Shown: positions 2,910 through 60,893 of the stretch, one piece after another
Layout of the letters: the number at the start of each line of letters is the position of its first letter
How positions within the stretch are numbered: the stretch's first letter is position 1
Source of the DNA: an uncultured Candidatus Binatia bacterium
GTDB lineage: Bacteria > Desulfobacterota > Binatia > UBA9968 > JAJDTQ01
Assembly (NCBI GenBank): GCA_965204505.1
Contig: CBDBFB010000004.1
Coordinates: 235,449 to 299,448, forward strand
Length of the DNA: 64,000 nt
Reading direction: 5' to 3'
Position numbers and translations under genes: made by a program
The notes under the pieces: generated by a model
Told to the model about the DNA's origin: nothing
Database searches by the model: none
What the model saw: only the letters and a program-made list of their open reading frames with translations

Positions 2910-4142
2910 TTGCGTTGGCGTCCCCGACGTTCCCTGGACCGGGACGGCGGCCTGTCCTCCCTGGCCGTCCGTGACTTCCGGCTGCTCTACATCGCCCTTT
3001 TCGGAACCTCGGTCAGCTACCAGCTCCAGCGCACCATCGAGCTCTGGCTGGTCTACCAAATCACCGGCTCCCCCCTGTTGACGGGGTTCACCGGCTTGGT
3101 CCGCGGCTTGGCCACGGTGGTATTCCAACTGGCCGGAGGAGTCGTGGCGGACCGCATCGACCGGCTGCGGTTCGTGATCCTGGTCCAGGGCGTGAATGCC
3201 CTGATTACCCTGTCGCTGGGAACGCTGGCCCTCACCGGCCTGATCCAGGTGTGGCACATTTACCTGGCGGCCTTCGTGAACTCGACCCTGACCACCGCGG
3301 CCGAACCGGCGCGGACCGCCATGATCCCCGGGCTCGTGCCGCGGGAACTGCTGGTCAATGCCTTCGCCCAGGTCGCGTCCGTGCGCAAACTGTCGCAACT
3401 CGTCGGCCCCGCGGTGGGCGGTATCCTGATCGGCGCCGCCGGCTCCGGATGGACCTACGGGGTGGCCTGCCTGATCTATATCGTGTCCGTCCCGATCATG
3501 GTCTGCATGCGCTACCAGTCCGGGCCCCTGGACCGGGAGCAGCCCCCGGTAAAGAGCCTGCTCGAGGGGATCGACTTCATCCGGCGCAACTCGCTGATCG
3601 TCGTGCTGCTGGTGACCGAGTTCGCGGCGGTCTTCTTCGGCAGCTACCGCGCGCTGCTGCCGATCTTCGCCGTGGCCATGGGACTCGGGCCCGAGGGCCT
3701 TGGCATCCTGCTGGCCGCGCCGGCGCTGGGCTCGCTCCCTGGCGTGGCCGCGATCATGTGGCTGGGGAATATCTCCTACAAGGGCCTGTTCATCGCGTTC
3801 AGCGTCATGGCCTACGCCGGCTGCCTTTTCGGGCTGGCGTTCTCGACATGGTTTCTCGGATCGGTGGCGATCCTGTTCCTGGTGGGTGTTTTCGACGCCC
3901 TGCAAGCCGTGGTGCGCCAGGTCGTGATCCAGGCCCGCACCCCGGACAACCTGCGAGGGCGCGCCGCGAGCTTCCAGCGCATCCTGGGCGTAGGCGCCCC
4001 CTCCCTCGGCGAGGCCCATTCCGGCGCCATCGCCGCGCTGATCGGCGCGCCGTGGACGCTGATGGTGACGGCGGCGGTCTGTATCGGGCTGACCGCGGGG
4101 CTGGTGGTCAAGCGGCCGGATCTGCGGGATCGGGATTTGTGA
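2910..4142 (+). CDS. MFS transporter (12-TM, EntS/MFS_3-like efflux permease)
   Basis: Hydrophobic 410-aa protein with MFS-like N-terminal FRLLYIALFG..., DRIDR(L)R loop motif; only start available is TTG at 2910 (no in-frame ATG/GTG near N-terminus), so start uncertain. Confidence 0.7.
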   Translation: MRWRPRRSLDRDGGLSSLAVRDFRLLYIALFGTSVSYQLQRTIELWLVYQITGSPLLTGFTGLVRGLATVVFQLAGGVVADRIDRLRFVILVQGVNALITLSLGTLALTGLIQVWHIYLAAFVNSTLTTAAEPARTAMIPGLVPRELLVNAFAQVASVRKLSQLVGPAVGGILIGAAGSGWTYGVACLIYIVSVPIMVCMRYQSGPLDREQPPVKSLLEGIDFIRRNSLIVVLLVTEFAAVFFGSYRALLPIFAVAMGLGPEGLGILLAAPALGSLPGVAAIMWLGNISYKGLFIAFSVMAYAGCLFGLAFSTWFLGSVAILFLVGVFDALQAVVRQVVIQARTPDNLRGRAASFQRILGVGAPSLGEAHSGAIAALIGAPWTLMVTAAVCIGLTAGLVVKRPDLRDRDL

Positions 4143-4219
4143 CGCCGTTTCGATTGGGCGTTTGATTTCCCGTGACACTGACGAGCCAGAACGACGATGG
4201 TACAATGGAAGCATAGATC

Positions 4220-4241
4220 GGCAACCACGTTGCCGTTTGTC
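4220..4241 (+). terminator. Putative intrinsic terminator after MFS gene
   Basis: Perfect hairpin cggcaac-cac-gttgccg followed by TTTGT; lies at the high-GC/low-GC boundary of the islet. Confidence 0.35.
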
Positions 4242-4363
4242 CCGAAATCTGTCACGGAAAGACTTCACCACCGGTATGCAAGTGCGGGCGGCGGCGATCT
4301 TCGACTGTTTGCCTTGGATTTTGAATCTGCCGCGCGTCTTAAAGTCATGCGGGAGGCGTCGCT

Positions 4364-5491
4364 ATGAGTAAAGAACCATTCGTGAGGTTGCGTCTAGTCG
4401 GAGCGCGCTACGATGACCATTCTGTACCGCTAGAATTCTTGAGGGATATCGCCGTATTGGAAGAAATGATCGTCGAAGTCGCTAAGTTCATGTTTCTTCG
4501 GGATAATCCAGACCGGCAGCGGTCGCCCCGTGGATTCACTAAGGACATCCGCCTAGCGCTTGCGACGATTAGTCCCGGAAGTACAGCTCTGGAAATCCTA
4601 CTTGTCTCGGAGCCGCCGACTTTGCTTCCGACCACCAACCAAGCGTACTTCGGGAAGGCACGTGATCTGATCATCAGTGCGATTGATGCAGCAGAACACG
4701 AAGACCCCCTTCCACAGGAACTGCCGGAGACGACCCTGAGCTACTTCGATAAGGTCGGTAGAAGCCTCAAAGACGGCGAAGCTATCGAATTCGACAGTCC
4801 GGACCATAAGACCACGGCTACGCTCAACAGAGAGATTCGACGACGTTTGGTCCTTGCATCGTCCAAAGTGAAGGAACTCACCGAGGAGATAGCCATTCGA
4901 GGCACGGTTCCCGAGGCTGATCAGGACGATATGACTTTCGAGATTCTGTTGGCTGATCGCCACAAAGTACAGGCTCCGGCCTCGCCACAGCATCTCGACA
5001 CGATTCTCAGGGCATTCAACGGTTATGTGGACGGAATGCACGTGCTCTTTCAGGGAATTGGTCGCTTCAGTCGCAACGAGCAACTAGTCGGTTTTGATTC
5101 GATCGAGCACTTGAGTATTCTCGACGCGCTAGATGTTGGTGTACAGATCGATGAGTTGAGGTTGTTGGAGGATGGGTGGCTTGACGGAGAAGGACTAGCG
5201 CCCCCTTCGGATGGCCTCGACTGGCTGTACAGCGCGTTCGATCGACACTATCCCGACGAGGTGCCGTTACCGCACCTCTACCCTACAGAAGGCGGTGGCG
5301 TTCAGGCCGAGTGGTCCCTAGGTCCAAACGAGGTCACGTTTGACATTGACCTCGCCACCCACGTGGGCGAATGGCATGTACTCGACACGGAGTCCGACGT
5401 CGACAGCCAACGTACGCTGAACTGTGACAACAACGACGATTGGACGTGGCTGGTCGCGGAGATCGAGGCCATGATGTCGGGCAACGTATGA
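4364..5491 (+). CDS. Hypothetical protein (375 aa), no recognizable domain; first gene of low-GC two-gene islet
   Basis: ATG 4364 preceded by GGGAGG; local GC ~55% vs ~68% background; stop overlaps start of next gene (ATGA at 5488-5491). Confidence 0.6.
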   Translation: MSKEPFVRLRLVGARYDDHSVPLEFLRDIAVLEEMIVEVAKFMFLRDNPDRQRSPRGFTKDIRLALATISPGSTALEILLVSEPPTLLPTTNQAYFGKARDLIISAIDAAEHEDPLPQELPETTLSYFDKVGRSLKDGEAIEFDSPDHKTTATLNREIRRRLVLASSKVKELTEEIAIRGTVPEADQDDMTFEILLADRHKVQAPASPQHLDTILRAFNGYVDGMHVLFQGIGRFSRNEQLVGFDSIEHLSILDALDVGVQIDELRLLEDGWLDGEGLAPPSDGLDWLYSAFDRHYPDEVPLPHLYPTEGGGVQAEWSLGPNEVTFDIDLATHVGEWHVLDTESDVDSQRTLNCDNNDDWTWLVAEIEAMMSGNV

Positions 5492-5865
5492 CACCTGATA
5501 CCTTACTCCTCCGGCAGATCAATCCACGCTGGATACGAGAAGGAAGAGTCACGTCGCAGGCGTTTAAGCCGACCGCAAAGGACAACAAGAGACTGTCCGT
5601 GCATGACGGCGACCAAACGACAGCCGAGGAGGCGTATCGTCGCTACACCGAACAACTAGGGTTGACCTCGTCTGGCGTCATGGCCGTGACAGTCCAAGAA
5701 TGCCAGAAACAGAGTTTACCAGTGACGCCCGATCCGGAGCCGTTCCCGGAACATGTCGTAATCGATTTCGTTTCGTACTCCAACGCGCAGATTGAGGCGA
5801 AGGCGAAGCAGTTGACAAAGGCGGCTCGACTGCGGGACTGGCTTTATCAGAGGGACGACCAGTAA
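5488..5865 (+). CDS. Hypothetical protein (125 aa), translationally coupled to upstream gene
   Basis: ATG at 5488 overlaps upstream TGA (ATGA); ORF-track version starting at 5440 is an upstream extension; no recognizable motif. Confidence 0.5.
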   Translation: MTPDTLLLRQINPRWIREGRVTSQAFKPTAKDNKRLSVHDGDQTTAEEAYRRYTEQLGLTSSGVMAVTVQECQKQSLPVTPDPEPFPEHVVIDFVSYSNAQIEAKAKQLTKAARLRDWLYQRDDQ

Positions 5866-5928
5866 GCATGCCGCTATTGGGCACCAGAGGCCATTCGGAC
5901 TGTCCGTATACAGGAAGCTAAAACGTAC

Positions 5929-7371
5929 CTAACGCAACTCCGGCTTCCTCTTATACCATCCCGCCGCCTGCTCATAAGCGTGGGCCACCTGGAACACCTG
6001 GTTTTCCCGGAAGCACGCCCCGACGATCTGCAACCCGATGGGCAGTCCGCCGTCCGTGAACCCGCAGCACACGCTCAGCACCGGCAGGCCGGTGACGTTG
6101 AAGGGGATGGTGCAGCGGGTGCCGATGCTGCCGCTGGGGTGGCGGAAGGGGATGCGGCGGCCGTCGATTTCGGCGAAGCCCTGCTTGCATTCCTCGATGG
6201 TGGGGGCGGCGATGCCGACGGTGGGAGCGACGATCACTTGCACGTCGTGGAGGGCCTCCTCGAACTCGCGGCAGATGACGCGCCGGACCCGCTGGGAAGT
6301 GACGTAGGTCGAGGCGGGTATGGTTAGGGAGGCGATGTTGCGGTGCAGCAGTTCGCGGCTGTAGTCCCGGGGCTGTTTACGGATGTAGGGCTCGTGGGCG
6401 ACGAGGTTCTCGCACCGGCTGGTGGCGGTTTGCACCGCGGGGACCATATCCATGTGGGGTATGGTGACGTCCTTGACCTGCATGCTCAGGGCCTCCAGGG
6501 CGACGAGGGCGTCCCGGAATGCCTTGTCGACCTCGTCCACCATGAGTTCTTGAAAGTAGCTGTCGACGACGCCGACTTTCATGCCGGCGACGGCGGCGCC
6601 CAGGCTTTCCGTGTAGGCGGCCACCGGCTCGGCTGAGCATAGGGGGTCGTTGGGGTCCTCCCCGGCGATGGCCGCCAGCACCAGCGCGCAATCCTCCACG
6701 GTCTTGGTGAAGGGGCCGAAGTGGTCGGACGAGAAACCGCCGGTGCCGGCTACCCCGCCCCACCGGCTTACCCGGCCGTAGGTGGCCTTGAGGCCCACGG
6801 TGCCGCACCAGGCTGCCGGGTTGCGCACGGAGCCGGCGTTGTCGGTGCCGATGGAGACCGGGCACAGGTCGGCGGCCACCGCGGCCGCCGAGCCGCCGCT
6901 GGACCCTCCCGGCACGCGGGTCGTATCCCACGGGTTGTAGGTCGTGCCGAAGTAGGGGTTCATGGTGGTGCCGCCGCCGGCCCACTCGTGCATGTTGTTC
7001 TTGCCCAGGACGATGGCTCCGGCCTCCCGCAGGCGGGTGACCACGGTGGCGTCGAAGTCGGGTTTCCAGTCCGCGAGGATTTGGCTCCCGGCCGTGGTCG
7101 GGTAGCCCTTGACGGCGAGGTTGTCCTTGATGGACACCGGCACGCCGTGCAGCGGGCCGCGGTAGTTGCCGCCGGCGATCTCCTCTTCGGCGCGCCCGGC
7201 CTCTGCCAGGGCCTCGTCCTCCATGACGGTGCTGTAGGCGTTGATCACCGGGTTGAGGCGCTTGATTCGCTCCAGGTAGCAGGTGGTGACCTCCACCGGC
7301 GAGACCTCACGGGAGGCGATACGCGGGGCGAGGTTCGCGATGGTGAGGGTTGTGGGGTCCAGATCGGGCAT
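5929..7371 (-). CDS. Amidase (amidase-signature family, GatA-like)
   Basis: 480 aa; GGSSGGSAAAVA amidase-signature motif with catalytic Ser-cisSer-Lys context (SIKDN...GGSSGGS); ATG at 7369-7371. Confidence 0.85.
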   Translation of the reverse strand: MPDLDPTTLTIANLAPRIASREVSPVEVTTCYLERIKRLNPVINAYSTVMEDEALAEAGRAEEEIAGGNYRGPLHGVPVSIKDNLAVKGYPTTAGSQILADWKPDFDATVVTRLREAGAIVLGKNNMHEWAGGGTTMNPYFGTTYNPWDTTRVPGGSSGGSAAAVAADLCPVSIGTDNAGSVRNPAAWCGTVGLKATYGRVSRWGGVAGTGGFSSDHFGPFTKTVEDCALVLAAIAGEDPNDPLCSAEPVAAYTESLGAAVAGMKVGVVDSYFQELMVDEVDKAFRDALVALEALSMQVKDVTIPHMDMVPAVQTATSRCENLVAHEPYIRKQPRDYSRELLHRNIASLTIPASTYVTSQRVRRVICREFEEALHDVQVIVAPTVGIAAPTIEECKQGFAEIDGRRIPFRHPSGSIGTRCTIPFNVTGLPVLSVCCGFTDGGLPIGLQIVGACFRENQVFQVAHAYEQAAGWYKRKPELR

Positions 7372-7400
7372 GGGGTTTCCTTTCCCTGACTGTTGGAATG

Positions 7401-7584
7401 GCGTCCTTCGACTTCGCTTCGCTGGCGCTCCGCTACGCTTAGGACGAACGGCAAGAGGCTACCACACCTTTCGTTCCGATCCCTTCGACAAGCCTGTCCT
7501 GAGCTTATCGAAGGGTCAGGACCAACGGGAAATGGCTGTCACACCCGTTCGTCCTGAGCGTAGCGAAGCGAAGTCGAAGGACGC
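7401..7584. repeat. Composite palindromic element (family B): ~50-bp inverted arms flanking core cccttcgacaagcctgtcctgagcttatcgaagggtcagg
   Basis: Arm 7401-7451 is reverse complement of 7545-7584; core hairpin recurs at 16742-16770 and 22957-22980; source of spurious PVLSLSKG / CPEPVEG peptides in six-frame ORFs. Confidence 0.75.
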
Positions 7585-7587
7585 AAG

Positions 7588-8589
7588 TCAGTCGAGGTCC
7601 GCGCAGGCCGGGATAACCTCGCGCCCCCAGAGATCCATGACTTGGTCGAACACGCCCATGGGGGGCGTCAGCAGCACGTGGGAGACACCGGCCTCCGCCA
7701 GCGCACGGACACGCGCCGCGCACTCATTCGGCGTGCCGGCGATGGCGAAGCGTTGCAGCAGGTAGTCGGTGATGAGGGCGGGGTCGGCCCGTTCCTCCAG
7801 CGGCTTGCTGATGTCGAAGGCGGCCATGAAGCGCTCGACGCCGGCGCGCTCGTCCCGTGGTACGGTTTCCATGGTGAAGCGGAAGTTGTGATGGGCGCGG
7901 TTGGCCAAGCGGGCGCGCACCAGCTCGCGGGCCCGGTCGCCGTCCTGGTGGACGCAGATCATCCCCGCCAGGGCGATGTCGATGTCGGACGGCTCGCGTC
8001 CGCCTTCCCTGGCGCCGTCGGCGATTCGCGCTTGCGCCCACTCCAGCACGTCGATGTCGAACCCGGTGCCCAGCATGATGCCGTCGGCGTAGCGTCCGGC
8101 CACCCCCAGGCTCCGCGGTCCCACCGCGGCGACATAGACGGACACCGGCAGCCTGCCGGCGTTGAGAGCAACCGCGCCGGCTCCTTCCCGGCCCCGCGGC
8201 ACCTCGATAGAGCGTTCCTGGAGCAGCTCGCGGATGGTCGCCAGTCCGGCCGCGAATTCGGTTAGTGGCGTGGCCTTTCGTCCCAGCCGGTAGGTGGAGC
8301 CGTCGCCCGTCCCCAAGCCGAGGATTGCCCGGCCGCCGGAGAACTCGTTGGACGTGGCCGCGGACAGGGCCAGGGTCGTGGGGTCGCGGTAGGCCATGGT
8401 GGTGGCGGCGATGCCGAAGCGAAGGCGCTCCGTTCGCAGCGCGCACACCGTCATGGCCTGGAAACCGTCCAGGTTGTTCAGGTGGCCGTCGGCGAAGAAC
8501 AGGGCGTGGAAGCCCAGGGCTTCGGCGGCGACAGCCCTGCGCGTGATCTGGTCGGCGTTGCGAGCGGGGGAATGAATGGAGAAACGCAC
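7588..8589 (-). CDS. LLM-class (luciferase-like) flavin/F420-dependent oxidoreductase
   Basis: 333 aa with luciferase-like TIM-barrel signatures (ILGLGTGD, FAIAGTPNE); GTG start at 8587-8589 as in ORF track; start uncertain. Confidence 0.65.
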   Translation of the reverse strand: MRFSIHSPARNADQITRRAVAAEALGFHALFFADGHLNNLDGFQAMTVCALRTERLRFGIAATTMAYRDPTTLALSAATSNEFSGGRAILGLGTGDGSTYRLGRKATPLTEFAAGLATIRELLQERSIEVPRGREGAGAVALNAGRLPVSVYVAAVGPRSLGVAGRYADGIMLGTGFDIDVLEWAQARIADGAREGGREPSDIDIALAGMICVHQDGDRARELVRARLANRAHHNFRFTMETVPRDERAGVERFMAAFDISKPLEERADPALITDYLLQRFAIAGTPNECAARVRALAEAGVSHVLLTPPMGVFDQVMDLWGREVIPACADLD

Positions 8590-54516: not shown

Positions 54517-54933
54517 ATGCCCAAGGCGCTCAGCGGCCTGATGGGAATGCGCCACATCGCCCTCAACGTCAAGGACGTCGAGCGCTCCAAAGCCTTCTAC
54601 CAGGACGTCCTGGGCATGGAAGTGGTGTGGCAGCCGGACCCGAAAAACGTCTACCTGAGCTCCGGGCCGGACAATTTGGCCTTGCACGAGACCGCTGGCG
54701 ACCGGGTGCCCGCCGCCACTTCGTCTCTCGACCACTTGGGCTTCATTGTTTCCGACATCGAACGCGTCGAGGAACTCGAAAACGAGTTCCGCGCCAGGCA
54801 GGTCACCATCATCAAACCCTTCAAGCGCCACCGCGACGGCAGCGCCTCGTTCTACTGTGCCGACCCGGACGGGGTCGTGATTCAGATGCTCTACGAGCCG
54901 ACTTTGAGCAGGCAGAGCATCAGAAGGGAGTGA
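54517..54933 (+). CDS. VOC-family (glyoxalase I-like) protein
   Basis: MRHIALNVKDVERSKAFYQDVLGM; ATG 54517 after AAGGA; upstream extension rejected. Confidence 0.7.
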   Translation: MPKALSGLMGMRHIALNVKDVERSKAFYQDVLGMEVVWQPDPKNVYLSSGPDNLALHETAGDRVPAATSSLDHLGFIVSDIERVEELENEFRARQVTIIKPFKRHRDGSASFYCADPDGVVIQMLYEPTLSRQSIRRE

Positions 54934-55106
54934 CGGGATTTGCCACCCAAGTGTGGTTCGCCGGACTCGGCAAAATGCGGTGCCCTAGTTTATCTGACAG
55001 GATGGCGGCGGAGTAAAGGCTGTACTCCAGAATCTGCGCTAGCGGTCCTTTCTCGTGGGCATCGACCAGACTCGACTCACCCAAGGCCCGTTTCTGATAT
55101 GGGCTA

Positions 55107-55520
55107 CTAACCGCCCGTGGTGGAAGTAGTAGCGCCTGCCTGTCTCTTCTTCTGTTCGTCGTCGGCTTTCTTCTTCAGCAAGTCCGGACGGCGAATGCCC
55201 ATCTTTGTAAAAAGGCTAAATACAGCATCACTGCCTCCTGCGACGAGCAAACCAGTTATTACACGTCCGAGGAAAGTACTTTGAGTCTCTTTTCCAAGAG
55301 AGGCGATTATTTCTTGAAAGAGGTCGATGTCGTAGTGGTAGAGCAAAAATATGGCGAGAATTACCGTTATTGGAGTCTTGACACCCTTTCCTTCACAGTA
55401 TCGAGCGAATATGCGCCACTGGAAGATCGGCGTTAGCGCAACTTCAAATGCTACCGCAATCACTGCTAGTACCATGACCACGTCTGCTACGTGCTGAAAG
55501 TTGACTTGTAATCCGCCCAT
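55107..55520 (-). CDS. Small integral membrane protein (3 predicted TM), last gene of CBASS-like island
   Basis: 137 aa, three hydrophobic segments, ~48% GC. Confidence 0.45.
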   Translation of the reverse strand: MGGLQVNFQHVADVVMVLAVIAVAFEVALTPIFQWRIFARYCEGKGVKTPITVILAIFLLYHYDIDLFQEIIASLGKETQSTFLGRVITGLLVAGGSDAVFSLFTKMGIRRPDLLKKKADDEQKKRQAGATTSTTGG

Positions 55521-55652
55521 GCCATCTCCTTTCTTGCGACGATGGATTCCGAGTATCGGCCTTTGTTTCTACTGGATCATCTCTTTCCCATTCCAACACA
55601 TCACCTTCCCCTCCATTTCTAATACTTCTGGCCCAGGAAGCAAAGTAGATAG

Positions 55653-56129
55653 TCACGACCGAGAGCGTGCTGCTCTCCGGACGTGTCGGTTGGGGGTCAA
55701 CGTGGGGTTCTGACCTGGATGTGTCCCTCCACCATTCCACTCACCGTGTGCGAGCCAGTCTTCGAAATAGAAGAGCCAAGTGTAGCTCCACGGCACGATG
55801 GTCTGGTCTATCCGTTTCGTGGGTGCCCATTGGCCAGTACCTGGTGTATAGAGGCACAGTCGTGTCGGTTTTTGGTAAACATGCGGCAGTTTACGCCCGT
55901 CCGCCAGGAGTTCAAGATTCGGTTCTTCGACGAAGACCTCGGGGCTCATTCCAGCACGGTATTCAATGCGCAACCGATAGCGCCGAGAGAGTACGGTCGG
56001 GCGTATGTAGAAATGCCAAACGAGTCGACTAGCAACAATTCGCCCGACACCTTGGCAATTCGGATTCCCCTTCAGCGACAAGTGCTGCTGAGGTAAGGTA
56101 AGAGCCTTCGTCCCGCGCTGTCCGATCAA
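55653..56129 (-). CDS. Putative E2 (ubiquitin-conjugating-like) protein of a type II-short CBASS
   Basis: 158 aa; HVY...TRLCLYTPGTGQW resembles E2 HPN-Cys active-site region; TTG start 3 nt after nucleotidyltransferase stop; weak assignment. Confidence 0.35.
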   Translation of the reverse strand: MIGQRGTKALTLPQQHLSLKGNPNCQGVGRIVASRLVWHFYIRPTVLSRRYRLRIEYRAGMSPEVFVEEPNLELLADGRKLPHVYQKPTRLCLYTPGTGQWAPTKRIDQTIVPWSYTWLFYFEDWLAHGEWNGGGTHPGQNPTLTPNRHVRRAARSRS

Positions 56130-56132
56130 AGG

Positions 56133-57332
56133 TTAGTCTCCGAAGAAGTCGTTCCTGGGCACTGGGGTCGTCCCAGCGAGGAAGCTCATGGACAATCCGA
56201 CATTTGGAGCAACGCGTAGCGAGCCATTCGTTCGTGCCGCAGAAACTGCCTGCGTCTGCGCTGCGGTTGCCTTCTTGACGACCGACTCGCCGAGTGCATC
56301 ATGCATTTCGTGTACAATCCTATCGATGCCAACAGCGTCGCGGATGGCTTCAAAATCTGCCAAAGCTTTGGCCTGCCACTGATAAAACGCGACGACCCGC
56401 GCGGGCTCCGCATTCCAGCGGTCGGCGAAGTTCTCGCCTTCAGTGGTCTCGTTCCAGACCGCATGAAATTCGATACCGTTTGTGATGGAATGTTCAATGA
56501 AATGAGGTAAATTCCGGATTGTCTCAATGAGGACTTCCAGTTCGTCACCAAAAATACGTCCTTGAACACAATATTCATATGAGCGCATCGCGAGGGTAGT
56601 GATGATCACAGAAATCGGCGCAAGATCTGCCGTCGTGTTCTGAAAGTGGTAGTCGCGGTGTCGCTTTAACAGTTGAATCGTGCGGCGCAGGATGCCCTTA
56701 ACGGTCTGTTGTACAGGGAAGGGTTCTACCGTTGCCGCGTCTTTTAACATGGCTAGCCGTTGCCCAGAAAGGGTGGGCTGTATGGCGGCGCGTCGTTCGA
56801 AAAGGGCCTTGAACGCGCGCGGGTTGGTTGGATGCCAACCATGAAGTTTTCGGTCGGGGACAAGTTCGCCCCCGTTAAAGCATTTCGGGTTTGAGATCGT
56901 AGGCGAAATGTCGAGGTGAAATTCACCGGTGTAGTTCAACCGCCAGCAGCGCTTCTTCTCCTCAAGAATCGCCGCATAGGACCTGTGCTCTGCAAGTCGA
57001 TCTCCGATAGACCGCTTGAGGGTTGCAGGCGGCACGCTGGTCGAGATGTATGCCGCGAAAGCGATTAAATCCACATCGAATTCGTCCTGTCGGATCGGTC
57101 GAACCGATGTGCCAAGTGCTCCAGAGCCCTGAAGGTAGACGGCTATTGCCGCTAGCAATGGGTCCTTGGAAGCTGCTAACCATTCGGCCACAGACTCGTA
57201 AGCTTGTCGGGCCCGCTCGAACTGGGTCCCGGTGAGTTCAAGTTCCTGACAGATTCTTTCGAGAATCGTGAAGATTTGCACACGTCGCTGTAGGTCAGCG
57301 TCGCGCAGGTGTGTGTGAAGTAAACTGTTCAT
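56133..57332 (-). CDS. SMODS/CD-NTase-like nucleotidyltransferase (putative cyclic-oligonucleotide synthase)
   Basis: GSGALGTS...DEFDVDL (GS...DxD) and later HLDIS acidic residue = Pol-beta-like NTase catalytic triad as in CBASS cyclases; ATG after AGGAG; overlaps patatin stop (ATGA). Confidence 0.6.
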   Translation of the reverse strand: MNSLLHTHLRDADLQRRVQIFTILERICQELELTGTQFERARQAYESVAEWLAASKDPLLAAIAVYLQGSGALGTSVRPIRQDEFDVDLIAFAAYISTSVPPATLKRSIGDRLAEHRSYAAILEEKKRCWRLNYTGEFHLDISPTISNPKCFNGGELVPDRKLHGWHPTNPRAFKALFERRAAIQPTLSGQRLAMLKDAATVEPFPVQQTVKGILRRTIQLLKRHRDYHFQNTTADLAPISVIITTLAMRSYEYCVQGRIFGDELEVLIETIRNLPHFIEHSITNGIEFHAVWNETTEGENFADRWNAEPARVVAFYQWQAKALADFEAIRDAVGIDRIVHEMHDALGESVVKKATAAQTQAVSAARTNGSLRVAPNVGLSMSFLAGTTPVPRNDFFGD

Positions 57333-58363
57333 GCTGTAGCTCCTGGTAGGTTGTGGACCGGGACAAACGGGTCTGCGGTCGTCTGGAAGAACACGGGCGT
57401 CAAGTCTGGTTTGGCATCCCGTGCTGCGGAGACACCTATGCCCTTGAGACGACTGATTCTTGACGCATCATCCATTGCGAAGAATCCAGCCGGTACAGTG
57501 GGTGCATATCGGAAGACCCTTTGTCCGTTACGAGAATCCCTCGTGAGTAGCTTTGCCATACCGAGTGCACCATGGGACTGGCCGTCCGCCAGAAGGTTCA
57601 GAATTTTCCCTTTGAGCTTGAGGTAACCTGGGTTCTCGGGAAGCATGTACACTTCGTCAGTGCAACCGAGGCTTAGTATGCGTAAATCCGCCGGATTCCA
57701 GTTGAGGAGAGCAATCGCCTCGACTGTCGCTACCGCGATGGGGTTGTTGGCCCAAGTGCCGCCGTCTAGGAGACCAACATCACTTACCGTCCGATGCCGC
57801 TTGAACTGGGTAGGTGCTGCCGCTGTGGCCAACGCAGCATCGACTACCGGCTGGCGGTAGTCAGTGCTGATCCGCTCGTGATGAGCGGTCTTGTATATGT
57901 AGGGACGGCGGCGGTCGGCGTCCCACGCTGGAATGACCAGGCGTGTCGTGGCATCTCCGATGCGCGCGCCTTTGAGAAATTTCTCCAACTCCACTTGGAG
58001 GTTTGAAGCGTCGTGCTTCGATCTGAACCAGGGCCTCAGTTTCGACAGGAGGCGTCTTCCCAGCCGTTCCAGGACACCACCAAGCATGGAGTCGGACCTA
58101 GTCGCGTCACCGAAGATGACGGGGCCACGATCCTCGTAAAGCGACAAGATCTCTTTGGCGGGATGACCGAGGGCCAATCCGATCGCGATAATGCCGCCAG
58201 TGGAGGTCCCTGCGATAAGATCGAAGTATTCGCCGATAGGTCTACCTAGGTCTTCTTCGAGAGTCGCTAGGAAAGCGGCGGGTTGTGTCCCCTTTATTCC
58301 ACCCCCGTCTAGGGAAAGCACACGCTTGATTTTGGCTTCACTCACGTCCACAGGACAACACAT
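57329..58363 (-). CDS. capV: Patatin-like phospholipase (CapV-like CBASS effector)
   Basis: LSLDGGGIKG oxyanion motif and GTSTGG (GxSxG) nucleophile elbow, DGG catalytic Asp region. Confidence 0.8.
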   Translation of the reverse strand: MCCPVDVSEAKIKRVLSLDGGGIKGTQPAAFLATLEEDLGRPIGEYFDLIAGTSTGGIIAIGLALGHPAKEILSLYEDRGPVIFGDATRSDSMLGGVLERLGRRLLSKLRPWFRSKHDASNLQVELEKFLKGARIGDATTRLVIPAWDADRRRPYIYKTAHHERISTDYRQPVVDAALATAAAPTQFKRHRTVSDVGLLDGGTWANNPIAVATVEAIALLNWNPADLRILSLGCTDEVYMLPENPGYLKLKGKILNLLADGQSHGALGMAKLLTRDSRNGQRVFRYAPTVPAGFFAMDDASRISRLKGIGVSAARDAKPDLTPVFFQTTADPFVPVHNLPGATA

Positions 58364-58478
58364 AGCCGTTCCCTTGGTATTGTCTTTCCTCCAGGACCGC
58401 TTGACCCACGATACTAGGTATGGTTCAAGCGTGCATGGATTCCAGCATACCGTACCAGTCTATGAAACACAAGTCCAT

Positions 58479-58507
58479 TTGACGAAACACATATATCGGG
58501 CTAAGAT
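58479..58507 (+). promoter_or_regulatory. Sigma70-like promoter of capH-capP-like pair
   Basis: TTGACG-17 nt-TAAGAT, ~6 nt upstream of AGGAGG ribosome-binding site and ATG 58523; short inverted repeat ggtatgg/ccatacc 40 nt upstream could be an operator. Confidence 0.45.
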
Positions 58508-58522
58508 ACACTAGGAGGTCGG

Positions 58523-58840
58523 ATGAAGATAGACGAACTGGCTTCCCTCCTCTCCCGACGACGGGGAAACATGGGCGTAAGGGCTGCGGCGCAGGAGATA
58601 GGTATCAGCCCCACCACGCTGTCGCGGATCGAGAAAGGACACGTCCCAGATGTTGGGACCCTCGAAAAGGTATGTATGTGGTTAGGGGAGGAGACATCTC
58701 GGTTCACTGGCTTGGGGAATCTTCAAATTGCGTTCAAGAACCGCAAGGCCGTTCCTCCAGATACTGCCAAGGCATTGGCATCCCTTATCGAGAATGCTTC
58801 CGAGCAATTCGCGGCCGAGGTGGCGGCTCGAGGGCACTAG
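58523..58840 (+). CDS. capH: XRE-family HTH transcriptional regulator (CapH-like)
   Basis: AAAQEIGISPTTLSRIEKG helix-turn-helix; divergent from CBASS operon; coupled to downstream peptidase gene. Confidence 0.7.
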   Translation: MKIDELASLLSRRRGNMGVRAAAQEIGISPTTLSRIEKGHVPDVGTLEKVCMWLGEETSRFTGLGNLQIAFKNRKAVPPDTAKALASLIENASEQFAAEVAARGH

Positions 58841-59431
58841 GTGGCCTTCCGCCGTGGGTTCAAGTCCCAGTGCGAGCGCCGCTCGGTGGAATTCCGAAGA
58901 CAACTCGGGATCTTGAATACTGGAGCGCTGAGTGCCAGTGCTCTCGCTAGCCAACTTGGGGTGACCGTTTGGTCTACCAGAGACATCGTGACGCTTCCTG
59001 CTGATGATCTGGCAGTCCTCAACGACCCGCATGACGATTCATGGGCGGCGCTGACCATGCGGATCGGATCGTCGAACCTAGTGGTTTACAAGCCCGTTCC
59101 CTCCGCGAGACGACAAAACAATGTGATCATGCACGAGTTGGCCCACATTATATTGGGTCACGAGTTGGCCGCGGCCTGCATTCTTGAGGACGGGTCACTG
59201 GTTCCTGGCAATTTCGATCAGGAGCAGGAAGACGAAGCTGATTGGCTAGCCGGCACCCTATTGCTCCCTAGACAGGCCTTGATGTCAATCCGCCAGCGAC
59301 GCCTCCCGATTCGTCAGGCGTGCAATGAATATATGGTCAGTGAGGACATGCTCGCTTGGCGCATTCGGATGACAGGGGTTGATTATCAGTTGTCGCGCTC
59401 GCGAGTAAATAGAGGTCGTTCCTTGAGATGA
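58841..59431 (+). CDS. capP: ImmA/IrrE-family zinc metallopeptidase (CapP-like)
   Basis: HELAHIILGH (HExxH) motif in DUF955-like context; GTG start directly after capH-like TAG. Confidence 0.7.
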   Translation: MAFRRGFKSQCERRSVEFRRQLGILNTGALSASALASQLGVTVWSTRDIVTLPADDLAVLNDPHDDSWAALTMRIGSSNLVVYKPVPSARRQNNVIMHELAHIILGHELAAACILEDGSLVPGNFDQEQEDEADWLAGTLLLPRQALMSIRQRRLPIRQACNEYMVSEDMLAWRIRMTGVDYQLSRSRVNRGRSLR

Positions 59432-59468
59432 AACAGGGCATGGGCCGCTCGTGGGCTGATTGCCACCC

Positions 59469-60893
59469 TCACGCCTCTTGGGTTAAGCTCTCGACAATCC
59501 CTTCCGCCGCCGCCTCCCCGCTAGCGATGCAGTCGGCGATGCCGACGCCGCGGTAGCTCTTGCCGGCGAGGGCGAGGGTGGGGAACTTCTGCAGCCGGGC
59601 TTCGATTCCGTCGATCCGGTCCAAATGGCCGACGTTGTACTGAGGCATACCGCAGACATAACGGGTGGTGCGGCAGATCGTCGGAGCGCCGGAGATGCCG
59701 AGGAGCGATTCCAGATCCTCCCGGACCTGGGCTTCCAGGGCCTCGTCGGGTTGGTCGAGGAGGTCCGGTTGCAGCGCTCCCCCCGCGAAGCAACGTAGCA
59801 GGGCGATTTCTTCCGGAGCTCTTCCGGCGTACTTCACGCTGCTGAAGGTGCAGGCCATGATCTTCCGGCGTTCCACGTGCGGGACCACGAATCCGTAGCC
59901 GTCGAGGGGGTGGGCGATATCGCTCCTCCGATACGCCAGGTTGACGGTGGCGGTGGACGAGAAGGGGATCGCCCGTAGCTCACCGGCCAGTTCGGGGTCC
60001 AGGGTTGTCATGGCAGCAGCCGCGGCATCGGCCGGCAGGGTGCAAATCACGGCGTTGGCTTCGAACCCGGAACGGCCGGTGTCGACCCTCCAGCGGCTGG
60101 TGTCGGGGTTCCATCCCAGTTCGCGGACCGTCTCGCCCGGATGCACCACGCCGGCACCGAGTGCCTCCTCGATGCGGCGCACGAGCACTTCCATGCCCCC
60201 GTCGATGCTCACGAACAGGCTCCAGCGCGCGCCGGTCTCGTCCGCGGCTTGGACGCGGCGCTTCTGCGCGCGGCGGGTGCCGAGGATAACGCTCCCGTGG
60301 TTGCGCTCCATTTCCAGGAACCGCGGCATGGTGGCGGCCAAGCTGAGGGTTTCGGGGTTGGAAGCGTAGATGCCGCCGATGAGGGGCTGGGCGACACGCT
60401 CCAGGACTTCGCGGCCCAGCCGGCGGCGCACGAACGAAGCGAGGCTTTCGTCGCCGTCATCGGAGCGCCTGGGCATCAGCGGCTCCAGCGCCATGCGCAG
60501 CTTGCCGCCCCAGGAGAACACGGGACTGCGCAGCACCGAGCCCACGCGCGTGGGAGCCATCAACAGAAACCCTTCGGGCAGCGGCATCAGCGCGCCCCGG
60601 TGGACGGTATACAGCTTCAACGCGCCCTGTCGCGGTGCAATGAGACGGTCGGTGAGGCCGAGGCGCTCGCAGAGACGCAGCGCCGCGGGCTTGTCGGTGA
60701 TGTAGGAATCCGGACCCAGTTCGATGAGGAGATCGCCGGCGTGCTCTGTGGCGATGACGCCTCCGAGGCGGTCGGAGGCTTCCAGCAGGGTGACGCGCAA
60801 GGCTAGCGACCCGGCGCGGCTCAGCTCCGTCAGCCGATGCGCCGCGGCGAGGCCCGAGATGCCGCCGCCGATGACGATGATGTGCTTTGTCAT
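59469..60893 (-). CDS. hemY: Protoporphyrinogen/coproporphyrinogen III oxidase (HemY-type, FAD)
   Basis: IIVIGGGISGLAAAHRL FAD dinucleotide motif; 474 aa; downstream of hemE. Confidence 0.8.
   Translation of the reverse strand: MTKHIIVIGGGISGLAAAHRLTELSRAGSLALRVTLLEASDRLGGVIATEHAGDLLIELGPDSYITDKPAALRLCERLGLTDRLIAPRQGALKLYTVHRGALMPLPEGFLLMAPTRVGSVLRSPVFSWGGKLRMALEPLMPRRSDDGDESLASFVRRRLGREVLERVAQPLIGGIYASNPETLSLAATMPRFLEMERNHGSVILGTRRAQKRRVQAADETGARWSLFVSIDGGMEVLVRRIEEALGAGVVHPGETVRELGWNPDTSRWRVDTGRSGFEANAVICTLPADAAAAAMTTLDPELAGELRAIPFSSTATVNLAYRRSDIAHPLDGYGFVVPHVERRKIMACTFSSVKYAGRAPEEIALLRCFAGGALQPDLLDQPDEALEAQVREDLESLLGISGAPTICRTTRYVCGMPQYNVGHLDRIDGIEARLQKFPTLALAGKSYRGVGIADCIASGEAAAEGIVESLTQEA

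Follow-up and report, generated by a model that had tools for sequence, protein, structure and literature searches.

Here we describe a predicted anti-phage defence island in the genome of an uncultured Candidatus Binatia bacterium. The island lies in a stretch of 64,000 nucleotides (contig CBDBFB010000004.1, positions 235,449 to 299,448), which we refer to as the window, and it brings together a cyclase of the CD-NTase kind (nucleotidyltransferases resembling cGAS and DncV), a stand-alone E2 protein, a patatin phospholipase and a divergently transcribed pair of repressor and peptidase. We conclude, with a probability of roughly 0.88, that it is a functional cyclic-oligonucleotide-based anti-phage signalling system (CBASS) of the type II-short, E2-only kind, which acts by abortive infection and is gated transcriptionally by a pair of proteins like CapH and CapP. 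The analysis establishes the identities of the components, the intactness of the catalytic residues, the conservation of the cassette, purifying selection on its genes and the conservation of operator-like boxes. Judged by its best matches, the locus is a diverged instance of an already known type of system, E2-CBASS with CapH/CapP-like control. The features on which this reading is built are the following, in window coordinates.

55653..56129, minus strand: E2-only CBASS regulator, 158 amino acids (aa), TTG start
56133..57332, minus strand: CdnG-like CD-NTase, 399 aa
57329..58363, minus strand: capV-like patatin phospholipase, CBASS effector, 344 aa
58364..58522, 159 nt: divergent intergenic region between capV-cdnG-E2 and capH-capP, the expected site of promoters and operator
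58455..58492, plus strand: two direct copies of a CCAGTCTATGAAACACA-like box, 20 nt apart, a candidate CapH operator found by repeat search
58523..58840, plus strand: capH-like XRE/HTH_3 repressor, 105 aa
58841..59431, plus strand: capP-like ImmA/IrrE zinc metallopeptidase, 196 aa, GTG start

The cyclase and the E2 protein are each most similar to a different chain of one and the same solved complex, the SmCdnG-SmE2 complex of the Serratia marcescens E2-CBASS (PDB 8hsb, with 8yjy and 9kkb from the same system; Xiao et al. 2026, PMC12948482; see also Yan et al. 2024 on this system, as cited there), and this double match is the decisive result for the predicted identity of the locus. The cyclase of an E2-CBASS is expected to have a GS...DxD...D active site and a C-terminal extension with a glycine near its end. 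The active site is present here as QGSG at residues 68-71, D86xD88 and D141, which align with QGSV, D84, D86 and D138 of SmCdnG. The protein matches Pfam SMODS at 1.2e-13, along with the DncV-like NTFase domain, and the PADLOC cyclase profile PDLC00780 at 9.1e-109. Its closest solved relative is SmCdnG (8hsb_A), at 1.1e-56 in an end-to-end alignment, and the second is BdCdnG (7ljn), at 1.6e-9. Since the alignment reaches the last residue of SmCdnG (399 vs 407), it takes in the putative E2-binding C-terminal extension, a motif found only in E2-associated cyclases (PMC12948482). The extension is expected to fold as a helix plus a sheet of three strands. The chain finishes with NDFFG398-D399, so that, as in Serratia, a glycine is followed by a single residue (FFG-D here, FYG-E in SmCdnG). 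The pattern N-(T/D)-F-(F/Y)-G plus one to a few residues ends 83 related cyclases, which come from the 80 E2-CBASS loci described below and from other fetched loci, and GD is the commonest ending. At the CdnG-specific lid residues the substitutions are conservative, with Thr for S167 and Phe for Y172 of the Serratia enzyme. By its best hit to SmCdnG, the cyclase appears clade-G-like, the clade that supplies 73.65% of E2-CBASS cyclases (PMC12948482).

The E2 protein aligns with SmE2 (chain 8hsb_B) at 2.3e-27, with Cys92 placed on the catalytic C101. This cysteine sits within PHVY...RLCLY (PHVY at 82-85, LCL at 91-93), so that the PH.Y...LCL core and the catalytic cysteine are shared with the Serratia protein just as the GS/DxD/D site is shared between the cyclases. 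It matches the PADLOC CBASS E2 profile PDLC00864 at 1.1e-53; it is without a match in the local copy of Pfam, and its database relatives all carry Pfam PF26395 (E2-CBASS). In 36 homologues Cys92, His83 and 24 further columns are invariant, P82-H83-V84-Y85 and L91/L93 being included. Unlike these conserved cores, the proteins as wholes have diverged from their Serratia counterparts (bit scores 196 and 99). The tail of the E2, taken as the disordered part after the GGGxH motif, is rich in arginine and holds no lysine, and a tail lysine occurs in only 12 of 58 distinct E2 homologues (from loci L007-L089). On these alignments the isopeptide acceptor K159 of SmE2 is not a conserved feature of the E2 family, and the lysine-free tail argues that the isopeptide step of SmE2 is not general.

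Searches of the island open reading frames (ORFs) with Pfam and PADLOC found no E1 or JAB gene. An E2-CBASS should have an E2 with a catalytic cysteine standing alone, with neither E1 (Cap2) nor JAB (Cap3), and the island has exactly this; with an E2 present and no E1 or JAB, it belongs to the type II-short, E2-only CBASS. Like the Serratia system, it consists of a CdnG-type CD-NTase, a stand-alone E2 and an effector. E2-CBASS has been catalogued in 616 genomes, and a cyclase-E2 complex of this class has been solved. A full Cap2-type (E1-E2) system was considered and is excluded by the absence of E1 and JAB.

The third gene of the operon encodes the effector. The patatin carries GGGIKG at 20-25, GTSTG at 52-56 with Ser54 and DGG at 200-202 with Asp200; it matches Pfam Patatin at 7.9e-26 and the PADLOC profile Effector/Phospholipase PDLC00758 at 1.9e-92. 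It scores 212 bits against NCBIfam CBASS_lipase NF041079 (CBASS cGAMP-activated phospholipase), a curated equivalog model with a cut-off of 200 bits, and its closest solved relatives are the CapV structures 8zr9 and 9wn0 (1e-25 to 1e-28). A nucleotide-activated effector gene is expected next to the cyclase in an E2-CBASS, and here it is the gene of this CapV-type patatin, which overlaps that of the cyclase by ATGA (TCAT on the plus strand, 57329-57332). The gap from the cdnG stop codon to the TTG start of the E2 gene is 3 nt. A role of the patatin in lipid metabolism outside defence was also weighed, and it is ruled out by the passed CBASS_lipase equivalog cut-off together with the translational coupling to the CD-NTase. 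At the level of profile matching, the E-values of the hidden Markov model searches (1e-109 to 1e-8) rule out chance matches.

The locus also invites comparison with the CapV-DncV type II CBASS of Vibrio cholerae and Escherichia coli, with which it would share, by analogy, a patatin CapV effector, a cGAMP-type signal and a ubiquitin-like conjugation enzyme that regulates the cyclase through its C-terminus. Unlike that system, which has Cap2 (E1-E2) and Cap3 (JAB), the island lacks both an E1 domain and a JAB deconjugase, and unlike the clade A enzyme DncV, its cyclase is a CdnG-type enzyme that carries an additional domain at the C-terminus.

Upstream of the operon and on the opposite strand, sharing its promoter region, lie the genes of the repressor and the peptidase. 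This is the layout of CapH/CapP, which have been studied in the CBASS of E. coli MS115-1 and Thauera sp. K11 (PDB 7t5t; Lau et al. 2022, 10.1101/2022.04.27.489752; Calloji et al. 2026, 10.64898/2026.05.16.725639), and the repressor is also close in length to CapH (105 aa, CapH 107 aa). The two genes abut, the TAG of the first being followed directly by the GTG of the second with a gap of 0 nt. The repressor matches HTH_3 at 7.7e-8, and the peptidase matches Peptidase_M78 at 3.4e-11 and PADLOC capP at 2.3e-8. A CapP should have an HExxH motif, a downstream glutamate and, optionally, a cysteine-switch loop, and the peptidase has HELAH at 98-102 (H98-E99-xx-H102), E130/E132 and a Cys113-x-x-E-D loop. 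The correspondence is close in position: the first histidine of HExxH is H98 here and H97 or H96 in CapP, the region of the third acidic ligand is likewise shared, the Cys-x-x-acidic-Asp loop lies 15 residues past the first histidine as in E. coli CapP (C114/D117/D118), and the invariant Arg91 corresponds to R90, which contacts single-stranded DNA (ssDNA). Residues H98, E99, H102, E130 and E132 are invariant across the peptidase homologues. Cys113 is not universal, being present in 35 of 42 homologues, where it is followed by E/D116 and D117; in CapPs the cysteine-switch loop occurs in 33% (10.1101/2022.04.27.489752; 10.64898/2026.05.16.725639).

The architecture of the peptidase differs from that of CapP, which consists of a peptidase domain, an HTH-like linker and, at the C-terminus, a GAF domain and holds ssDNA between peptidase and GAF (10.1101/2022.04.27.489752; 10.64898/2026.05.16.725639). 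CapPs are 288-291 aa long (288 in E. coli) and the protein here has 196 aa; its AlphaFold2 model (pLDDT 88.9) predicts a peptidase domain and a four-helix region followed by the end of the chain, and thus neither three domains nor the C-terminal GAF wall of the ssDNA groove. ImmA is a short protein without GAF, and the peptidase here has a similar architecture. The family as a whole is about 190 aa long, the best 120 of 486 matches being 63-85% identical and 175-199 aa in length. In a Foldseek search, the model matched IrrE/PprI best among solved structures (3dti and 8sln, probability 1.0, TM 0.54), with a mycobacterial XRE-M78 regulator also among the best matches. A profile search against Thauera CapP (7t5t) gave a weak match with the HExxH and the cysteine loop in register, while phmmer against the PDB returned no match for the peptidase and insignificant matches only for the HTH protein. 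By analogy, the pair may work as do ImmR/ImmA (ICEBs1, phage phi105) and DdrO/IrrE (Deinococcus), in which an HTH repressor is cleaved by an M78 metallopeptidase. Unlike ImmA and IrrE, the pair adjoins a defence operon and not mobility or DNA-repair genes, and the cysteine-switch loop present here is missing in both (for IrrE, according to the CapP papers). We take the pair to be CapH/CapP-like in function and layout, by analogy, with a short ImmA-like architecture and a putative step of ssDNA sensing.

The 159-nt intergenic region holds the two direct boxes listed above, which appear to be the best candidate operators. The sequence GAAACACA occurs 3 times in the 64 kb, and 2 of these occurrences are at 58455-58492. 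A sigma-70-like site, TTGACG-17-TAAGAT at 58479-58507 on the plus strand, overlaps the direct boxes; scans for promoters and terminators performed near chance level, and the capV promoter was not placed. The region is conserved in blocks with L001 (a 5.3-Mb metagenome-assembled contig from a sister genome), L087 and L094. In the loci L087-L094, this box or its inverted partner, GTGTTTCAC, recurs at an equal distance upstream of the homologous HTH gene, whatever the cargo operon. The sequence GTCCAGTCT(A/G)T(G/A)AAACACAA stands about 43 nt before the ATG of that gene, and the inverted partner usually lies about 50 nt further upstream of it.

When one genome of each species was scanned, 80 E2-CBASS loci (L007-L086) came up, mostly from Alphaproteobacteria, in which the E2 is at most 60% identical to that of the window and capV-cdnG-E2 is the commonest gene order. 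The full five-gene cassette, the divergent HTH and peptidase genes included, recurs in the closest relative, L087-89, with identities to the window proteins of 83% for the HTH protein, 77% for the peptidase, 76% for CapV, 73% for the cyclase and 68% for the E2. The regulator pair is not confined to this cargo. HTH proteins 79% and 70% identical to that of the window occur in L090 and L094, always with the peptidase partner: in L090-93 the pair (77% identical) stands beside a Mu-like prophage, and in L094 the pair (70% identical) is divergent to a ThsB-TIR/Nmad2/MazG operon, with the same type of box in both. The HTH/peptidase pair appears to be a portable defence regulator. The CapH/CapP family, too, is associated with several different defence operons, and such regulators adjoin 408 CBASS systems, among them some of type II and some whose effector is a phospholipase (10.1101/2022.04.27.489752).

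Some of these loci are of interest in themselves. In L087 (8793-10233) and L088, capH-capP lies between an E2-CBASS, from which it is divergent, and a co-directional type I CBASS, which in L087 has a cyclase (PDLC00823, 4e-95) and a 2TM effector (PDLC00712, 1.4e-60) and in L088 is interrupted by an IS21-type element; one regulator pair may thus control two CBASS systems. The L094 operon (3895-8570) encodes a ThsB-like TIR, Nmad2, MazG_C, an unknown protein and a second TIR next to a peptidase of 189 aa, and may be an uncharacterised TIR/nucleotide-modifying defence operon. Among the L007-L086 loci, dozens of genomes of Rhodobacterales from different genera share identical cassette spacing and near-identical similarity to the query, and some of their capV-cdnG-E2 cassettes are on plasmids or small contigs, which suggests a recent horizontal spread of one cassette within the order.

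The island as a whole is conserved in L001, where its six genes (the five above and that of a membrane protein discussed below) occupy the same site between the same flanking genes. Each of the six ORFs is intact here and in L001, where full-length orthologues were recovered by tblastn, and the catalytic residues of all island enzymes are in place. The ratio dN/dS of nonsynonymous to synonymous divergence between the two genomes is 0.06-0.17 (patatin 0.12, cyclase 0.16, E2 0.17, repressor 0.10, peptidase 0.17 and membrane protein 0.06), at dS of 0.37-0.63; the flanking housekeeping genes, with dS of 0.33-0.65, are indistinguishable from the island genes in this respect. All six genes are under purifying selection. 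The shared site, the intact genes and the low dN/dS together indicate that the island was there before the two genomes split and that selection has maintained it.

Taken together with what is known of related systems, these components suggest a sequence of events, each step of which is modelled on a homologue. In the uninfected cell, the XRE repressor would bind the GAAACACA-type boxes in the 159-nt region and keep capV-cdnG-E2 low, as Lau et al. (2022) lead one to expect and the conserved boxes suggest. Cleavage of the repressor by the ImmA/IrrE-type peptidase would follow upon phage stress or damage to DNA and induce the operon. The GAF domain forms half of the ssDNA groove in CapP and IrrE, and since it is missing here, the activating signal may be sensed differently, as in short ImmA. 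SmE2 cleaves after the C-terminal glycine of SmCdnG and becomes covalently attached there (PMC12948482). By analogy, the E2 would recognise the ubiquitin-like C-terminal extension of the cyclase and remove the residue after Gly398, and this glycine would then be joined covalently to Cys92, so that the cyclase would be regulated with neither E1 nor ATP. During infection, the cyclase would make a cyclic dinucleotide, probably a cGAMP isomer; its trigger is perhaps cleavage by a phage protease of a surface loop at about residues 183-215, as surface-loop cleavage is reported to activate clade G enzymes (PMC12991175). The nucleotide would switch on the CapV patatin (Ser54/Asp200), phospholipid would be degraded, and the cell would die before the phage is released.

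Several observations weigh against this reading. The interface residues E340, R360, Q368 and K380 of SmCdnG are not conserved, L385 alone being kept, although the SmCdnG-SmE2 interface region is known to vary (PMC12948482). The isopeptide lysine K159 of SmE2 has no counterpart in the E2, a situation common in the family, as the count of tail lysines given above attests. The peptidase is without the GAF domain of canonical CapP, and its similarity to a solved CapP is weak (E 0.13). The promoters cannot be placed with confidence, the clade G assignment reflects best hits and not a tree, and what is said of the cyclase product, of the covalent link to the E2, of repression and of defence against phage is drawn from homology.

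Most of the functional calls of the initial annotation, which was made from the letters of the window, were borne out by the profile searches: the patatin-like phospholipase with GGGIKG and GTSTGG motifs (PADLOC, NF041079), the 399-aa Pol-beta nucleotidyltransferase with the CD-NTase triad (SMODS, PADLOC cyclase), the E2-like 158-aa protein (PADLOC, PF26395 in its relatives, SmE2), the type II-short arrangement with an E2 and neither E1 nor JAB, and the divergent XRE HTH and ImmA/IrrE HExxH pair of CapH/CapP layout (HTH_3, M78, PADLOC capP). Its suggestion that the cyclase clade might be new fell away, the best hit being SmCdnG, of what appears to be the usual E2-CBASS clade. It had also suggested that the extra membrane protein might be new, and this did not hold up either, the protein being no conserved part of such systems, as the distribution of the gene shows. 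The features concerned are these.

55107..55520, minus strand: membrane protein, 137 aa, 2-3 hydrophobic helices, lysine-rich tail
55521..55652, minus strand: spacer between the E2 gene and the membrane-protein gene, 132 nt

The protein had been described as having three transmembrane segments, which is plausible but not certain, as the hydropathy profile shows a pair of strong hydrophobic segments and a weaker third. No Pfam, PADLOC (E<=0.1) or NCBIfam entry matches it, and its AlphaFold2 model is poor (pLDDT 59). It has relatives all the same: 42 close clusters and, by profile search, 869 representatives at 50% identity, many of which have signal peptides and unrelated extra domains, with no informative Pfam domain in the long ones. 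Over 42 homologues, 24 residues are invariant, including FE.A, F.WR.F, G.K.P, Y..D and LL.AGGS. No relatives turned up in viral contigs or phage genomes, so that an origin as a phage holin or exclusion gene is unsupported; its plasmid matches are distant Rhizobium hypothetical proteins. The close homologues, 49-65% identical, sit in mobile or defence-rich neighbourhoods, as follows.

L002: homologue in a conjugative element
L003: homologue adjoining N6-methyltransferase genes
L004/L005: homologue 143 nt after an AriAB-like (PARIS) ATPase gene
L006: homologue divergent from a Lipase_3 gene
L095: homologue as the last gene of an unknown operon that adjoins a multi-ubiquitin/E2/E1 system
L096: homologue, 51% identical, 88 nt after the NucC gene of a type III CBASS disrupted by an insertion sequence (IS)

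In L095 (4494-8519), the operon encodes proteins of 191, 135, 442 and 97 aa, the homologue being the last and overlapping the preceding gene, and it is divergent from a Multi_ubiq/Prok-E2_E protein and a ThiF E1, which form a ubiquitin-like system of the '6e' type; such systems have been linked to CapH/CapP-like regulators by Lau et al. (10.1101/2022.04.27.489752). In L096 (4980-9271), the type III CBASS consists of cyclase, HORMA, TRIP13 and NucC, the 5' end of the cyclase gene being truncated by an IS21-family element, and the stop codon of the homologue is overlapped by the gene after it, which encodes an Endonuclease_1 with a signal peptide. More distant members of the family follow genes for RND efflux, peptidase C25, NUDIX, multicopper oxidase and amylase proteins, and clustering of the neighbours in 35 metagenome loci of distant relatives found no common partner, an RND efflux operon recurring in one subgroup only.

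Most likely, the gene of the 137-aa protein is a passenger, independent of the CBASS and of a kind that is often located in variable regions; its product is probably not a CBASS component, and the gene is possibly co-transcribed with the operon. The scan of the 132-nt spacer found no terminator-like or promoter match, and the spacer of L001 is shorter, with only about 45 nt before the downstream ATG (the ribosome-binding region) conserved; both points make readthrough into the gene possible.

Two readings would give the protein a larger part. In the first, which we consider unlikely, its family would be an unrecognised group of small membrane proteins whose close members (at least 49% identical) recur 3' of unrelated abortive-infection systems (E2-CBASS, L096, L004) as a generic accessory, and the GAF-less peptidase family of 190 aa with its cysteine-switch loop would, separately, be a distinct class of defence regulators that responds to a signal other than ssDNA in a groove between peptidase and GAF. 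If this were true, the 137-aa protein could, for example, sensitise membranes, confer immunity to membrane damage that the cell inflicts on itself or act by itself as an exclusion protein. In the second, the protein would be an integral, co-transcribed fourth component of this CBASS, either a second membrane effector or an anchor or modulator of CapV. Its gene lies directly downstream on the same strand, past a spacer with nothing terminator-like in it; it is kept in L001 at 93% amino-acid identity under the strongest constraint of all the island genes (dN/dS 0.06), and homologues follow a NucC gene (L096, 88 nt) and an AriAB-like ATPase gene (L004/L005, 143 nt). However, no homologue is found in any of the 80 related E2-CBASS loci or in L087-89, where the rest of the cassette is present, and the CBASS operons that precede homologues elsewhere already have complete effectors. 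The protein matches no PADLOC profile of the CBASS 2TM/4TM (Cap14/Cap15-like) effectors, whereas the true 2TM effector of L087 scores 1e-60, and 137 aa are too few for a nucleotide-sensing domain. The GC content of its gene, 48.6% against 54-57% for the CBASS genes, suggests a separate origin, and distant members of this 869-member family follow unrelated genes or carry unrelated extra domains. We therefore consider a fourth component unlikely and keep to a three-gene operon with a passenger behind it.

Whether the regulator pair belongs to the system can be questioned in a similar way. It might be an independent switch of the ImmR/ImmA type from a mobile element, or a module resembling a toxin-antitoxin pair, and merely neighbour the operon; the short, GAF-less, ImmA-like peptidase, its weak NCBIfam/PADLOC matches to the spr1629 antitoxin, RmrA and Lit, and the 77%-identical pair beside the Mu-like prophage in L090-93 all lean this way. 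Yet such a switch would have nothing to control in the island, which holds no mobility gene such as an integrase or an excisionase, and the divergent arrangement around a shared 159-nt promoter region is the defining CapH/CapP layout. The pair also accompanies the same cassette in L087-89 and a TIR operon in L094 with its boxes conserved, matches PADLOC capP and keeps the Cys-x-x-acidic-Asp switch loop. On this balance, an independent switch seems improbable, and a CapH/CapP-like regulator of the CBASS is the reading we retain.

The setting of the island, as delimited by GC content and by the flanking genes identified with Pfam, is as follows.

54517-54933, plus strand: left flank, glyoxalase/VOC gene
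54934..59468: low-GC island
59469-60893, minus strand: right flank, protoporphyrinogen-oxidase-like gene

The 3' ends of the flanking genes are convergent, and the island sits between them. Its GC content is 54.8%, compared to 66.4% in the remainder of the window, and ranges from 49 to 59% per 500-nt window; the low GC together with the location between convergent gene ends indicates that it was acquired. No integrase, excisionase or other mobility gene occurs among its ORFs, no tRNA or Rfam family was found across the window, and a repeat search found no convincing direct or inverted repeats at the flanks of the island. The atypical GC, the lack of mobility genes and the several island genes missed by the gene caller in L001 might suggest that a cassette acquired horizontally is in decay and has left a remnant without function. 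This is very improbable in view of the six ORFs intact in both genomes, dN/dS of 0.06-0.17 at a dS of 0.37-0.63 as in the flanks, the presence of every catalytic residue and the full-length orthologues recovered by tblastn.

With respect to structure and composition, the six ORFs called initially were confirmed at their coordinates, and so was the lower GC of the island; the figures of 47-52% against 68%, however, have to be corrected to those given above, since only the membrane-protein gene is that low. Of four minus-strand genes said to be tightly coupled, the first three are (by the ATGA overlap and the 3-nt gap), and the fourth begins 132 nt past the E2 stop codon. Elsewhere in the window, at 4200-5900, there is a second low-GC islet (53-59% vs about 67%). 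Its ORFs at 4364-5491 and 5440-5865, both on the plus strand, correspond to the PADLOC candidate defence system PDC-M32 (PDC-M32A 3.4e-137, PDC-M32B 3.8e-53), and neither contains a Pfam domain.

The current understanding of these systems is not overturned by the locus. For annotation, its value lies in a firm call of the system and in the separation of a neighbouring membrane-protein gene from it. For the biology of the family, a diverged E2-CBASS from an uncultured high-GC bacterium (about 66% GC), which unlike the Serratia locus has a divergent CapH/CapP-like pair, joins a class with one biochemically dissected example, that of Serratia. It offers natural variation at three mechanistic points, namely the interface of cyclase and E2, the lysine-free tail of the E2 and the GAF-less CapP-like peptidase, and in the last of these, a cysteine-switch loop in a protein with no GAF domain constitutes a test of the published model of activation through the ssDNA groove.

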